Assembly: GCF_964194155.1 (NCBI RefSeq) | Contig: NC_135895.1 | Coordinates: 94,054,001 to 94,118,000 of the forward strand | Direction: 5' to 3' | DNA length: 64,000 nucleotides | Source of the DNA: Cetorhinus maximus | Taxonomy: Eukaryota | Shown here: positions 57,344 to 64,000 of the stretch, one piece after another | Layout: the number at the start of each line of letters is the position of its first letter | Numbering within the stretch: the first letter of the stretch is position 1 | Translations under genes and position numbers: made by a program | The notes under the pieces: model-generated | What the model was told of the DNA's origin: nothing | The model's input: the letters and a program-made list of their open reading frames with translations, nothing else | The model's database searches: none

Positions 57344-58407
57344 CTGCAGGAAAAAAAAAGCTAACATTCTGGGCATTCTTGGGAGCTAGCCAAGGATCCC
57401 AGAATTCCACCAGTAACACAGGCTGTTTCAATTAGAGGTGCTGATTATAACCAATCACGGCAGTTTAGAGCCATTTTTTACTGGCCTGAGGGACTCTGCC
57501 TATTACTGACAACAAGCACTGTATGAAAAGTGCTGTCAGTCCACAGCTTCATTCTGTTATACGATTATAACTTTCCAAACCAAAAAAAAATACCCCTGAC
57601 AGTAAAATGGGAAGGAAATCAAACTGCGACGTCAGCATTATAGTCCCAAATTTCACTTGTGTGGATTTTGGAATTAAACAGAAAATTTCTGACCTTCCCC
57701 CTCTCCCAGAATACATCTGCTGAAAGCAAGTAAAATGTGCTTTAAATTAGCCAAACTGTACTCAAAAACTCGAGAATCGAATGCACTTGTGTTTTGGAAA
57801 CAAAACTCTTTTTGTCTAACTGCCATGCATGCTATCGAACTAAATCTGTCAATGATTTTGGCCCCAGTCTGTTGTGTAGATTGTCGTAATATTGAGGGAT
57901 CAAAAATTATTTCACTTACAATGATTTCAAAAAACTGAACAATTTTACATTGAGGCTTCTGAGAGAACAGATTGTAATGGAAGCAAAAGGCCTGATTTTA
58001 ACTCTCCAGACCTGGTGGGAACTGAGTAAGTGGGTGGACAGGCAGTTAAAATCATCCAGGAGATTTAACCACCTACATCTTATTCTGTTGCCTTTGTTTT
58101 ATGTTTCCATCTGAGCAGAGGCAAGGGCACCTGCCTGAAGCCAGTGGGGCCTCTCATTTAAATATGCAGTTCAGGGTCTAATGATTCCCTTAGCCCCAAA
58201 TGCTATTTTAACTGGTGGCCTGAGCTGGGAAGCTTTCCCAACAGATGAAGACTGTGAGAAGATCAATCACCTGAAGAAGCTCAATCACACAAGTTTTTTC
58301 CTTGTAAAACCAAGAAGTGAGGGGCCCCACAAGGAAAGGAAAGGTCAGGCCTCCTCTTTCCTCGAAACATTCACCACAAATGCAAGACTATGCTAAAACT
58401 GCCTTCC

Positions 58408-58437
58408 CTTCTCGGCCTTTTGGCTGAGATCAAGTGT
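58408..58437 (+). ncRNA. U2 snRNA 5' fragment (nt ~5-34)
   Basis: cttctcggccttttggctgagatcaagtgt vs vertebrate U2 CTTCTCGGCCTTTTGGCTAAGATCAAGTGT (29/30, reference from memory). Confidence 0.9.
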
Positions 58438-58438
58438 T

Positions 58439-58458
58439 GCAGGGGCGACACCATGATC
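58439..58458 (+). ncRNA. U1 snRNA-like fragment (nt ~12-31)
   Basis: gcaggggcgacaccatgatc vs U1 GCAGGGGAGATACCATGATC (18/20, reference from memory). Confidence 0.7.
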
Positions 58459-60006
58459 CTGCCAAGGCAAGGTCTGGATGGAAAGGCTATAACCAATCGA
58501 AATCCATACCGTGGGTTACCTATCACCGTCCGAGTCACGGTGAACAACAGCGAAGGAGGATCACCTATGGATCGGGACTTCTTCGCCAGGAGGATCCTGT
58601 TGAAGGCGTGCGGCTTCGAAGCTCCGGAGATCTACACCCTGCAGGACTTCCGCAAAGCTGGTTATTTCGACGTGACGTTCAAGCGGGTGGCAGACTGCGT
58701 CCAGCTCCTGAGGGTGTTCGAGGAGAAGAGAGACCTGCCGGAGATGAAGATCCTGACGGCGGAGCCGCACTTTTCTCTGCCGTTGCAACGGGAACGTGTG
58801 GTGATGGTGCATGTGTACAACCCCTTCGTCCCTGTCGCCGACGTGGTCACCTTCCTCACCAGGTACTTCGATAAGGTGGGGAGCGGCACCGAGATTCGAG
58901 ACGACTTGGGGATCTGGACAGGCAAACGCCTGTTTAAGGTCACGCTAAAGACCGATGGTAAGGGAGCCATTTTCCACCCTCCTTCCAGTTTTGCTATCGG
59001 GGGAAACCGTGGCTACCTGGTCTACGCTGGGCAACCCAAGCATTGTCGCTCATGCGGCAAGGCTGGTCATGTGGCGGCCAACTGCCGCGCCTCCCTCTGC
59101 AAGATCTGCAAACAGGAAGGGCACCAGACAAAAGACTGCAAACAGGCCAAGTGCTGCAACCTGTGTGGCGAGGCAGGTCACCTCTACAGGACCTGCCCCA
59201 AACGCTGCCGTACTTACGCACAGGCAGCCAAAGCCGACGAGGGGGAAGCAGAAGAAATGTTTCGTGTCACTCCAACCACCAAGGCCCCCAGGGAGCTCAA
59301 CGGGACAAAGGAGGACACAGAGAGAGACAAGGTGGAGAAAGAGATTGAGGCAACAGACAGCCAATCAGCAGCACTACCCCCAGTACCTCCCAGTCCTCAG
59401 GACAGCGAATCAATGGAGGAGGAGGCAGCAGTGGAAAAGCAGCAGGGGGAGTGGCGGACGGTGAAGAACAACAAAAGTAAGAAGGAGCGAAGAAGAAGCA
59501 AAGCCATTTCCCAGAGAAGCGGCAAGAGGCGTCTCCCATCCGACATGGATGACAAGGGCAGCAGCTCTTCGGAGGATGAAGTGCCAGGGCGGCACCGACA
59601 GAAGAGGCGGCAAAGCTCCAGGGCGTTGGAGGACGAGACACCCGAGCTCCAGAAAATTGGAGACAACAAGGAGACCAGCGCACCCCAACTTTGCCTGCAA
59701 CCTGAGGAGGCCAGTGCACCACAGCCCCTGGAATCTGGGAGCAGTGAGGCAATCATCGCACCCCAGCTCCAGGAAGCCGGGAACGGCAACACCCCAGAGG
59801 GGGTGAGTTTTGGAGAAGCTTCTCCAGCAAAGGTCATCTCAAAACCCGCTCTCTACGTGAACCTCCAGATGCCACCTGAGCAGAACACTGCCAAGGAGAT
59901 CTACCTCAGCCCATCCAAAGTGAAGGAATTTGAGCTCACTACGGGTATGAAGGAGCAGACTAAAGGTCTGGGACTCTCAGAGACAGTGGGTTTGGTAGGA
60001 GAATAA
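58453..60006 (+). CDS. Tx1 ORF1p: RRM-like N-terminus + 3 CCHC zinc knuckles (ZCCHC3-like) + disordered C-terminus, ~517 aa
   Basis: YFDVTF, DDLGIWTG, GQPKHCRSCGKAGHVAANC, CKICKQEGHQTKDC, CNLCGEAGHLYRTC; the ORF-track start 58390 lies outside the TSD, so ATG 58453 is used. Confidence 0.9.
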   Translation: MILPRQGLDGKAITNRNPYRGLPITVRVTVNNSEGGSPMDRDFFARRILLKACGFEAPEIYTLQDFRKAGYFDVTFKRVADCVQLLRVFEEKRDLPEMKILTAEPHFSLPLQRERVVMVHVYNPFVPVADVVTFLTRYFDKVGSGTEIRDDLGIWTGKRLFKVTLKTDGKGAIFHPPSSFAIGGNRGYLVYAGQPKHCRSCGKAGHVAANCRASLCKICKQEGHQTKDCKQAKCCNLCGEAGHLYRTCPKRCRTYAQAAKADEGEAEEMFRVTPTTKAPRELNGTKEDTERDKVEKEIEATDSQSAALPPVPPSPQDSESMEEEAAVEKQQGEWRTVKNNKSKKERRRSKAISQRSGKRRLPSDMDDKGSSSSEDEVPGRHRQKRRQSSRALEDETPELQKIGDNKETSAPQLCLQPEEASAPQPLESGSSEAIIAPQLQEAGNGNTPEGVSFGEASPAKVISKPALYVNLQMPPEQNTAKEIYLSPSKVKEFELTTGMKEQTKGLGLSETVGLVGE

Positions 60007-60016
60007 ATGCTTTAAA

Positions 60017-63000
60017 ATGGGTTTAAAGATTGTATCCATAAATGTGCGTAGCATTAAATCTACTACGCGATGTGTTGCGACCTTGGACTACCTAGCCAAG
60101 GTCAAAGCTGACCTGTTGTTTCTGCAGGAGTGTGCGATACCGCACCTCAGCTCCTACAGGCAATGGCCACGATGGTGGTCCCATGGGCCATCGATCTGGT
60201 CGGGCGGAAATGACTCTCGTTCCTCCGGCCTGGGTATTCTGCTGCGGGGAGGCAACTTCACCGTCTCCGAGGTTAAGGAGGTGGTGGGCGGGCGCCTCCT
60301 CGTAGCAGACGTAATGTGCAAGAACGCTCCACTCCGGTTAATTAACGTGTATGGCCCGGCACAAGGGGCTGAGCGGCTGGAGGTTTTTCAGCAGCTCCCA
60401 CTGCTGCTGGCGACCTCCAGGCCGGTCATTCTGGGCGGTGACTTCAACTGCATCATCAATGCGGCTGGACGATCCAGCAGGGCCGGCAGCAGATTGGACG
60501 CTACGTCCAGATCCCTGATGGAAACAGTTAAGGATGCCAAGCTGCACGACGTCTTCAGCAACCCTGCAGACGGAGCGCAGCGTAGATACACCTGGTCGCG
60601 GCCAGACGGGTCCATTCGTTCCAGGATAGACTTCCTGTTTGTGTCCCGTGCATTCACAGTCAGATCCACCGAGGTCAAGCCGGTGTTCTTCTCTGACCAC
60701 TGCCTCCTACTGGCGGACTGCCACTTGGAGAAGGACCTGAGGGTGGGCAGGGGGGCATGGAAGCTAAATGTGCAACTGCTGACCCCAGAGAACATTGAGG
60801 AGCTCAAGAGGGATTACAAAGGTTGGAGAACCGTGAAACCCCTCTTTGAGTCCCTGACACACTGGTGGGAAGCGATCAAGGGAAGCATCAAGAGGTTTTT
60901 CATCCTCAAAGGCACCCAGAAAGCTAGAAAGGAACAGAGGGAAATGTCCCGACTCCAGAAAAACATGCAGAATCTGCTCCGGCTGCAGTCGATGGGGGTC
61001 GATGTCAAGGAGGAGCTCCAAGAGGTGAAGAGCCAGCAAGCCTCGCACTTTGCCTCGGAGGCCTCCAAGATCATCTTCCGTTCCAGAGTCCGCTCCGTGG
61101 AGCAGGATGAGACGTGCTCACGTTTCTTCTTCCAAAAGGTACACAGAGAGAGCTCTGTGATCAGCAGCCTGAAGGAAGAAGACGGCTCAGTAAAGTCATC
61201 ACGGTCCGACATTCTGAGGATCAGCAAATCCTTTTATGCCGGATTGTATGACGTGAAGCCCACGGACAGCACGGCCTCCCAGTCCTTCCTGTCCTCTATC
61301 ACGGAGGTCTTAGACGACAGTACGCGGGAGAGCCTGGACAAACCGCTAACTCCTGATGAACTGACTAAGGCCCTTGAGTCCTTCGAGAAGAGTAAAACTC
61401 CCGGAAGCGACGGCTTGCCGGCGGAGTTGTATTCGGCTCTGTGGGACTTGATCGGCCCAGACCTGCTAGGAGTGTACGAGAGTATGCTCCTGGCCGGCAG
61501 CATGTCAGAATCCATGAGGAAAGGCATCATCACCCTCATCTACAAGCACAAGGGGGAAAGGGAGGAAATTAGAAATTGGCGACCCATTTCACTGTTGAAT
61601 GTGGACTATAAGATTCTGTCCAAGGTCATCGCCAATCGGGTCAAATCCGCTCTGGAATTGGCGATTCACCCTGACCAGACTTGCTCTGTGCCAGGCAGGA
61701 AGATCTCTGACAGCCTGGCGCTGCTCAGGGATACGATTGCCTATGTACAGGACAGGGGTGTGGATACCTGCCTCATCAGCTTGGATCAGGAGAAGGCCTT
61801 TGACAGAATATCGCACACCTACATGGGGGATGTGCTCTCCAAAATGGGCTTTGGGGAGGGAATTCGAAATTGGATCCAACTGCTCTACACTAACATCAGT
61901 AGCGCAGTCTCAATCAATGGGTGGGAAACAGATAGCTTTCCGATTAAATCTGGAGTCAGACAGGGCTGTCCTCTCTCGCCTGTTCTTTTCGTGTGTTGCA
62001 TAGAACCCTTTGCCGAGTCCATCAGGAAGGATCCGGGCATAAGAGGAGTGACGATCCCAGGCAGTGGAGGCACTCAGGTAAAAGCCTCCCTGTACATGGA
62101 CGACGTCGCCGTCTTCTGCTCGGATCCGCTGTCGGTGCGCAGACTGATGCACATCTGCGACCAGTTCGAACTGGCCTCGGGAGCCAAGGTAAATCGTGGG
62201 AAGAGCGAGGCCATGTTCTTTGGGAACTGGGCTGACCGATCCTTTGTCCCCTTCACTGTCAGGGCTGACGGCCTGAAGGTGCTGGGGATATGGTTCGGAG
62301 GGACCAGGGCATGCGTTAGAAACTGGAAGGAGCGAGTGGCTATGGTGAAAAGGAAACTGGGCATGTGGGAGCGACGCTCCCTCTCCATTGCGGGTAAGAA
62401 CCTGGTCATCAGGTGTGAGGCACTCTCGCTGTTGCTGTACGTGGCGCAGGTCTGGCCCATTCCAGACTCCTGCGCGATGGCGATCACTCGAGCCATCTTC
62501 CGCTTTATCTGGAGGTCGAAAATGGATCATGTCCGCAGGGACGCGATGTACAAGCCTCTAGATAAAGGGGGAAAAAACGTGCCCAACATCGCCCTCATAC
62601 TGATGGCCACCTTTGTGTGTGGCTGTATCAAGCGGTGCGTAGACCCTCAGTACGCAAACACCAAGTGTCACTACGTGCTGAGGTTCTACCTGTCCCCGGT
62701 GTTGCGAAGGATGGGTCTTGCCACGCTGCCGCGGAATGCTCCAAGTAGTTGGACCGTGCCGTACCACCTGTCCCTGGTGGAAAAATTTATGCAGAAAAAC
62801 ACCTTTGACCACAAGTCCATCAGGCAGTGGTCAGCACGTAACGTCCTAGAGGCCCTGAGGGAAAAGGAGAGGGTGGACCCTGTGGGATGGTTCCCCGAGC
62901 AGACTGTCAAAGTCATTTGGCAGAATGCCTCATCGCCAGAACTTTCCAACAAGCACCAAGACGTAGCTTGGCTGGTGGTGAGAAAGGCCCTCCCCGTCAG

Positions 63001-63417
63001 ATCCTTCCTACAGGCCAGGAGTCTCACCCCCTCTGCACGTTGCCCTCGAGGTGGCTGTGGTGGGGAAGAGACCGTTGTTCACCTCCTTGTGCCTTTGCAA
63101 AGAAAGTCTGGAGAGAGATGCAGTGGTTGCTGTCGAGGTTCATCCCGAGCAGTTCTGTGACACAGGACTCTGTGCTCTACGGGGTGTTCCCAGGGACACA
63201 CACCGAGACAAACATCAACTGCAGCTGGAGGATCATCAACTCGGTGAAAGACGCGCTTTGGTCTGCCCGAAACTTGTTGGTCTTCCAGCACAAAGAGTTG
63301 TCCCCGACCGATTGTTGCGGACTGGCACAATCCAAAGTCCAGGACTACGTGCTGAGGGACGCACTAAAGCTTGGGGCAGCTGCCGCAAAGGCGCACTGGG
63401 GAAGGGTCGCTGTGTAA
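60017..63417 (+). CDS. Tx1 ORF2p: APE endonuclease + reverse transcriptase + C-terminal CCHC; single frameshift at ~63090
   Basis: SINVRSI, LFLQE, LGGDFN, SRIDFLF, FSDH; KTPGSDG, NWRPISLLNVDYKI, DQEKAFD, GVRQGCPLSP, YMDD; the C-terminus CAFAKKVW..WGRVAV* continues in another frame to 63417. Confidence 0.92.
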
Positions 63418-63621
63418 GACCTTTCTGCCACAGCGCACTGAGAGACTGGGAACTGTTTAAATCCCCTCGGGCTGTACAGCTCAAAATGAAAGGCTGTAAA
63501 TGATTGTAATATTGTTTGTACTGATGCACCTGGTGATACATTTTGTGAAAGTTTAACCTGGATTGTACCCTTGTAATGGTGTTTTTGAAATGGTTTGGAA
63601 TGTGATCGAAGATATTTTATG

Positions 63622-63654
63622 AATAAAGTATATTTTTGCAAAAAAAAAAAAAAA
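63622..63654 (+). terminator. Polyadenylation signal and poly(A) tail of the Tx1 element
   Basis: AATAAA at 63622-63627; A15 at 63640-63654, partly shared with the TSD. Confidence 0.9.
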
Positions 63655-64000
63655 CTGCCTTCCCTACAGCTTACCTAGTGCTGGCCAATGTTCCTTCCAA
63701 TGCTGGCCAGGGACCTCCTGTCACCGACAATTATGCTTCCACTCGCTGGAAACAGGCAACTGAGCAAATACACAAAGATGAGATTCAGGGAATAAAATTG
63801 ACTAGACTACAGTTGCTGAGGTCATGGGTTTTGGCACTCACCTCGATCCCCTGCCTGCCTGATTCCCACTCCAGGTTAAAATTGGGCCTCATGCATTTAC
63901 ACTAAGGGTACTAGCATGCTCTACTTGGATTGAGACCACTAATTGATATAATTTCCACACAGCCAGCACTCTCTTTAACTTTGCTATACAGTCTTCAAGA

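Follow-up and report, generated by a model that had tools for sequence, protein, structure and literature searches.

The LINE found in the window (the whole 64-kb stretch of DNA analysed here) is, with a probability of about 0.75, a dispersed member of a young Keno-like Tx1 lineage that targets snRNA genes, makes use of their promoters and has captured the start codon of its ORF1 from U1.

Structure of the window element

Positions 58410–63654 of the window hold a 5.2-kb Tx1-type LINE with two ORFs on the plus strand. The element is flanked by a 15-bp target site duplication (TSD): the sequence 58395–58409 recurs at 63651–63665, behind a tail of 15 A. The empty site is preserved in a contig of another organism (run X6), which reads 58300–58409 and then continues with the 3′ flank of the window from 63666. 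The following features were assigned:

58395..58409, no strand: 5′ copy of the TSD, 15 bp, from the repeat match and the empty site of run X6; the final 2 nt are compatible with U2 nt 5–6 as well
58410..58437, plus strand: U2-derived head, U2 nt 7–34, from the U2 match; fuller copies start at nt 1
58438, plus strand: junction base between the U2 and U1 matches
58439..58458, plus strand: U1-derived segment, U1 nt 12–31, 19/20 to U1 variant L040
58453..58455, plus strand: putative ORF1 ATG, U1 nt 26–28, where stem and loop of U1 stem-loop I meet
58459..58472, plus strand: diverged U1 nt 44–57, ORF1 codons 3–7, from the intermediate subfamilies L150, L129, L131 and L134
58483..58485, plus strand: codon 11 (Lys), where the ancestral ORF1 ATG stood before its loss in the window lineage, from subfamilies and homologues
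58453..60006, plus strand: ORF1, 517 aa, with two ZCCHC3-type RNA-binding domains and a CCHC knuckle, from the ORF and domain search
60017..63417, plus strand: ORF2 with AP endonuclease, reverse transcriptase and zf-RVT, from the domain search; frameshifted in the window copy
63418..63654, plus strand: 3′ UTR with AATAAA at 63622–63627 and poly(A) at 63640–63654
63651..63665, no strand: 3′ copy of the TSD, its first 4 nt overlapping the poly(A)

Comparison of subfamilies indicates that ORF1 codons 3–7 were joined to codon 2 through two 6-nt deletions. The Pfam domains of ORF2 are Exo_endo_phos, RVT_1 and zf-RVT. A 7-nt deletion after 63086 shifts the frame of ORF2 in the window, leaving 1047 aa compared with 1135 aa in intact copies. 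The first-pass annotation had described an autonomous LINE that starts straight after the TSD. Intact copies with both ORFs do exist, but the window copy itself is not autonomous because of the frameshift; likewise the TSD is confirmed, but the true start lies at 58410 and fuller copies begin at U2 nt 1. The nearest named proteins are annotated in the basking shark (93–98%) and in other sharks and rays. Contigs of run X1, which are RNA only by guess, cover 58675–59821, with the head outside this coverage. Gene models (P0001) stretch ORF1 5′ into the flank, the U2 head being open in the frame of ORF1; this is an annotation artefact. An ATG at 58390 was rejected as a start, since it is located in the flank, beyond the TSD.

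Origin and fixation of the snRNA head

The resemblance to the 5′ region of U2 (nt ~5–34, 29/30), noticed from the window alone, was recovered with the same score against the U2 of the same genome: 58408–58437 agree with U2 nt 5–34 at 29 of 30 positions. The resemblance to U1, at first put at 18/20, is also real, but its score depends on the variant and its extent had been underestimated. The segment 58439–58458 matches U1 nt 12–31 at 19/20 positions in variant L040 and at 17/20 in variant L031, and the U1 part extends to about 58472. Elsewhere in the window, no site on either strand exceeds 17/20 to any 20-mer of the U1 compared. Three U1 variants coexist in the genome (L031–L042, L350–L377); in a common one, a pair of stem-loop I has changed in a compensatory manner, which removes the ATG. 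The 28 promoter-bearing U1 starts read ACCATG in one case, CCTTG in 10 and another variant in 17.

The head is present in all 40 best DNA hits, 21 of which begin at U2 nt 1. The exact U2–U1 junction through the ATG occurs at 611 places in the genome, with 0 control matches; most of these seem to come from younger sister sub-lineages, as do 28 of the first 30. Since these sets were selected by the head, copies were also picked by a downstream motif (49 matches, 30 of them read). Head and ATG are present in all 30; the junction is the usual one in 29, and U2 extends to nt 43 in the other. The U2–U1 head is thus a fixed trait of the family and not a one-off event, a point that the first-pass annotation had raised as a question. 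In the window (58410–58490) and in L060, L334 and L116, the head and the first codons are predicted to form a single long hairpin (z −2.4 to −3.1). This hairpin is modest in U1-headed stages (z −0.9 to −1.8), and no function is claimed for it.

Copies inside U2 and U1 genes

All 40 exact U2 promoter-plus-start sites were read. Thirteen are intact, and 17 carry the head and ORF1 directly after the promoter; the remaining interrupted sites contain truncated or rearranged pieces of the element (8) or are interrupted first by another small insertion (2). Fifteen of the 17 full-length copies were fetched at length and one of them is cut by a contig end, which leaves 14 complete copies. Both ORFs are intact in 13 of these 14 (ORF1 520 aa, ORF2 1135 aa), and a 1135-aa ORF2 was found in 8 of 39 dispersed copies (the dispersed ORF and 3′-end counts cover 39 of 40 regions, L088 being left out). 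After the poly(A), U2 picks up at nt 39 in all 14 complete copies. Source-type copies behind a U2 promoter and with U2 downstream, which the first-pass annotation had envisaged, therefore exist.

The full-length in-gene copies join after U2 nt 34 or 37, and truncated ones retain U2 to nt 40–52, which represents a short TSD. The in-gene copies are 99.0–99.8% alike. Of the 17 full-length copies, 16 fall into a younger sister sub-lineage, and the sole copy of the window type (L251/L329) is decayed. An element-type T-to-C change is present in the U2 part of 7 of the 17, behind two promoter types, and at none of the 23 other sites.

Junctions of the tail to U1 were found at 96 places, many in duplicated arrays, where loci may be mutual duplicates and not independent events. 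The element interrupts 5 of 28 U1 promoter sites, and at locus L175 a U1 promoter leads into an older element with a U1 head, behind which U1 nt 41–162 follow. The family thus targets both U2 and U1 snRNA genes. The site of the element in U2 and U1 genes is taken at L344, L345 (C1271) and L374 (C1507) by a small insertion of unrelated sequence whose 5′ sequence is the same in each case; it is possibly a SINE mobilised by the element.

Dispersed copies and the start of the element RNA

Most copies lie outside snRNA genes. The flanks of all 40 dispersed copies gave no Rfam hit at gathering score, and no U1 or U2 promoter was found upstream of any of the 68 sampled junction copies, 10 of which sit directly behind another copy. 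The dispersal to non-snRNA sites proposed at the outset is borne out by both counts. The two bases next to the tail are TC in 11 of 39 dispersed copies versus 7.6% expected, a faint trace of the U2 site. In the upstream flanks, two unnamed repeats were hit more than once at a near-constant position, in old and young subfamilies: one by L088, L201 and L219 (also L100, L106 and L394) and the other by L063, L075 and L085 (also L140).

Among dispersed copies that start at nt 1, a G is found at position −1 in 20 of 33 U2-headed and 11 of 16 U1-headed ones, a count that includes any G belonging to the TSD, while G makes up about 25% of the flank (p 3e-5 and 3e-4, respectively). The base at −1 in U2 genes and most U1 genes is C. 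For L1, an additional G at the junctions of full-length copies is interpreted as a cap mark in PMC11702581. It is likely, as judged from these junctions, that the element RNA begins at the snRNA +1 and is capped.

Proposed mechanism

We propose that the element inserts into U2 and U1 genes about 32–41 nt past their start and is likely to be transcribed from the promoters of these host genes. The in-gene copies would be the only sources, and the source RNA would be capped and consist of the snRNA 5′ end followed by the element. A slightly 5′-truncated copy landing in the other snRNA gene would found a new head. In U2 genes, the head of the cDNA may anneal to the target, which would produce the precise full-length joins and overwrite the 5′ end of the gene. 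Such annealing and overwriting of the target 5′ end has been proposed for the melanogaster-type R1 (PMC2718515).

Alternatively, the heads could have been acquired by template switching onto free U1 and U2 snRNA, with the element having its own internal promoter and the in-gene copies being mere targets. This model, proposed for the heads of SINEU (PMC4494074), would account for heads that begin at snRNA nt 1 and have several lengths (U2 to nt 34, 37, 43 or 54), and dispersed copies do number hundreds. It is nevertheless unlikely to explain the data as a whole. Changes specific to the element are fixed in the head, and the same junction is repeated at its 611 places. Furthermore, the end-points of the heads are those at which truncated insertions join snRNA genes (U2 nt 40–52, U1 nt about 45–56), and intact copies are concentrated behind U2 promoters. 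The first-pass annotation had left the choice between snRNA-gene transcription and template switching; the association with snRNA genes stands, and the data favour insertion into and read-out from these genes over template switching. The two routes are not mutually exclusive for the founding events, and an internal promoter may be located downstream of +1.

Order of the subfamilies

Older subfamilies were recovered by searches with a piece of the horn-shark ORF1 and with the U1 5′ end. A tree was built from 86 ORF1 segments with the head left out; duplicates of other loci (7) and nearly identical copies from arrays (3) were dropped, 10 of 20 dispersed window-type copies were kept, and the placement of the long-branch rows L102 and L115 was not used. 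The tree is a ladder with its main nodes starred (98–100/86–100) and with a root that rests on two long-branch rows. The end branches shrink from 0.06–0.09 in stage (a) to 0–0.005 in the intact in-gene copies, and the order of the stages is therefore supported without reliance on the root. The stages are:

Stage (a): longer leaders, several of them U2- or U1-headed
Stage (b): U2 nt 1–37, then 9 nt, then the old ATG
Stage (c): U1 nt 1–57 minus 6 nt; U1 ATG in frame, 12 codons 5′ of the old ATG
Stage (d): old ATG gone
Stage (e): another 6-nt deletion
Stage (f): U1 nt 1–10 replaced by U2 nt 1–34; intermediates with U2 to nt 54 or 43 (L155, L320)

The succession read from these subfamilies is a long UTR, a U2 head, a U1 head and finally the U2+U1 head. 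The passage from a U1-associated to a U2-associated stage, as initially suggested, is correct in that U1-headed copies precede U2+U1-headed ones in the tree and the subfamilies, but it is incomplete, as a U2-only stage came earlier. In the U2-only stage, the 9-nt linker together with the ATG is complementary to U2 nt 1–12. Locus L380 (G000:C215 near 415161, minus strand) contains a U1 promoter, U1 nt 1–45, U2 nt 4–44, the U1 part and 75 nt of ORF1, followed by unrelated DNA. This broken three-part U1-U2-U1 head has the layout that would be expected of a next head switch.

Origin of the ORF1 start codon

The ATG at 58453 opens the 517-aa ORF1 and is the sole in-frame ATG within the element upstream of Met39 (58567). 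On the basis of the subfamily ladder and its alignment, codons 1–7 of ORF1 derive from U1 nt 26–31 and 44–57. In the alignment, the old ATG corresponds to codon 11, the point at which the ORF1 proteins of two other-species homologues start; the cross-species comparison covers proteins only, with these two homologues aligned. In the ladder, the old ATG was lost only once the U1 ATG stood in frame. Where the ATG-less U1 variant forms the head, the old ATG is kept in all four copies found, which may be one sub-lineage, and L144 and L163, of the same stage, contain both ATGs. It is thus likely from the sequence comparisons that the U1-captured ATG at 58453 serves as the ORF1 start codon and has replaced the old one. 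No prior report of such a start-codon takeover was found in a literature search that excluded Repbase and most subscription papers.

It could be argued that the head derives from U1 with its ATG being incidental, and that ORF1 is translated from Met39 or from a non-AUG codon. The ATG at 58453 does lie within the predicted long hairpin of the head and early ORF1 (z −2.4 to −3.1), and the leader of full copies is merely 48 nt long. Initiation at Met39 is nonetheless highly improbable. The match to the first RNA-binding domain begins at residue 25, 5′ of Met39, so that a start at Met39 would truncate this domain and remove its first strand. The position of Met39 is occupied by Val in both aligned homologues. 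In addition to the late loss of the old ATG, all four indels that became fixed in the lineage in the stretch from the U1 ATG to Met39 (−6, −6, +6 and +3 nt) preserve the frame. A chance or convergent resemblance within a short Kozak-like sequence, in line with the lack of an Rfam U1 call at the window head and the score of only 17/20 to a common present-day U1 variant, is refuted by intermediates with longer U1: the direct precursors L132, L134, L140 and L155 have an identical ORF1 start with U1 nt 1–11 still attached, and the older L150 carries U1 nt 1–57 (Rfam U1 E 0.005).

Long duplications next to snRNA genes

Three sites show an intact snRNA gene, then the element, and behind it a second copy of the remaining part of the gene together with the downstream DNA. 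The repeats measure 582 bp (100%), 785 bp (99.4%) and 263 bp (100%). Loci with an intact U1 or U2 gene and one or more elements, each with a repeat of 260–790 bp behind it, are L378 (G000:C22:23456500-23466400), L307–L311 (C1476, C31), L235–L236 (C30) and L243/L245 (C535). One site has tandem units whose junctions back to U1 lie at nt 41, 39, 34 and 39 but whose far breakpoint is common; between two of these units, 32 of 5192 positions differ. This arrangement is suggestive of repeated insertion into the intact gene, in which the head of each new cDNA would anneal to the head of the previous copy. In Phytophthora, intact U2 genes are located upstream of Utopia, for a reason left unresolved in PMC4640811, and R9 has an exceptionally long TSD according to a reference title in PMC2861651.

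A broader and more tentative idea, which we regard as possible though rather doubtful, is that of a promoterless LINE with its whole 5′ end taken from snRNA genes, which alternates between U1 and U2 by position and farms its targets via the 260–790-bp duplications. If it were true, the promoter, cap, leader, homing tag and first seven ORF1 codons would all be supplied by snRNA genes. The element would be targeted to a place just behind a Pol II start and not to a common sequence, and an intact gene would stay upstream.

Significance and comparison with known elements

The intact young copies right behind U2 promoters make the transcription of snRNA-headed elements testable. One genome keeps every step in which the non-coding U1 stem-loop I appears to have become a protein N-terminus and an old start codon to have been replaced. 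A compact element that inserts into U1 and U2 genes, shows no sign of its own promoter and joins through a short homology tag is also relevant to the targeting and integration of AP-endonuclease LINEs.

Autonomous Tx1 elements with snRNA heads are already known from crocodilians (PMC4494074). In the Tx1-Mar families, U1 heads are found on Tx1-2_Crp, Tx1-2B_Crp and Tx1-4_AMi and a U2 head on Tx1-11_Crp, and SINEU-1 has U1 and U2 heads added serially (PMC4494074). Like the shark element, the Tx1-Mar families are coding elements with a U1- or U2-derived 5′ end, and they group with Keno (PMC4494074). However, they are old (85–87% to consensus), have single heads and show a preference for Mariner (Mariner-N4_AMi) as target (PMC4494074), whereas the shark lineage is young, has a tandem head and includes source-type copies behind snRNA promoters. 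The transcription of snRNA-headed Tx1 elements is left open in PMC4494074, and ORF1 and its start codon do not figure in the parts of that paper examined. In contrast to SINEU elements, which are short (under about 500 bp) and non-coding, the shark element has 5.2 kb and two ORFs.

The first-pass annotation knew of no autonomous LINE with a tandem U2+U1 head and an snRNA-derived ATG. None was found in print, but single-headed autonomous Tx1 elements are known (PMC4494074). Neither a tandem head on a young LINE nor in-gene source copies were found in print, Repbase and most subscription papers lying outside the search. Within the same literature, again with Repbase outside the search, no report was found of U1-gene targeting by a LINE, dual U1/U2 targeting or shark examples. 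The only U1-targeting element listed in the consulted part of PMC4640811 is the DNA transposon Dada-U1.

Keno is a U2 gene-specific member of the Tx1 clade with an AP endonuclease (PMC4640811, PMC4494074), and U2 nt 39 is the site of Utopia, which is equated with that of Keno (PMC4640811). The shark element is called Keno-like from its site and domains, the comparison with Keno being made by description. Like Keno, it has an AP endonuclease and a reverse transcriptase, two ORFs and a CCHC knuckle in ORF1, and it inserts into U2 genes with U2 continuing from nt 39 (14 of 14 complete in-gene copies). Unlike Keno, it is not U2-specific, given the 96 tail-to-U1 junctions and the insertion of most copies elsewhere, and it has an snRNA 5′ end as its leader and a probably U1-derived ORF1 start. 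Like R1 (melanogaster type) and R2 (PMC2718515), it would have target-gene sequence at the 5′ end of its RNA; its full-length copies join precisely, with a small deletion of the target, its truncated copies have TSDs, and it takes target tags along to off-target sites. It differs from R1 and R2 in that its targets are Pol II snRNA genes, that two genes have been used in turn and that the tag now appears to be protein-coding. By analogy with these systems, the shark element would work like Keno with the addition of an R1-type read-out from the target gene.
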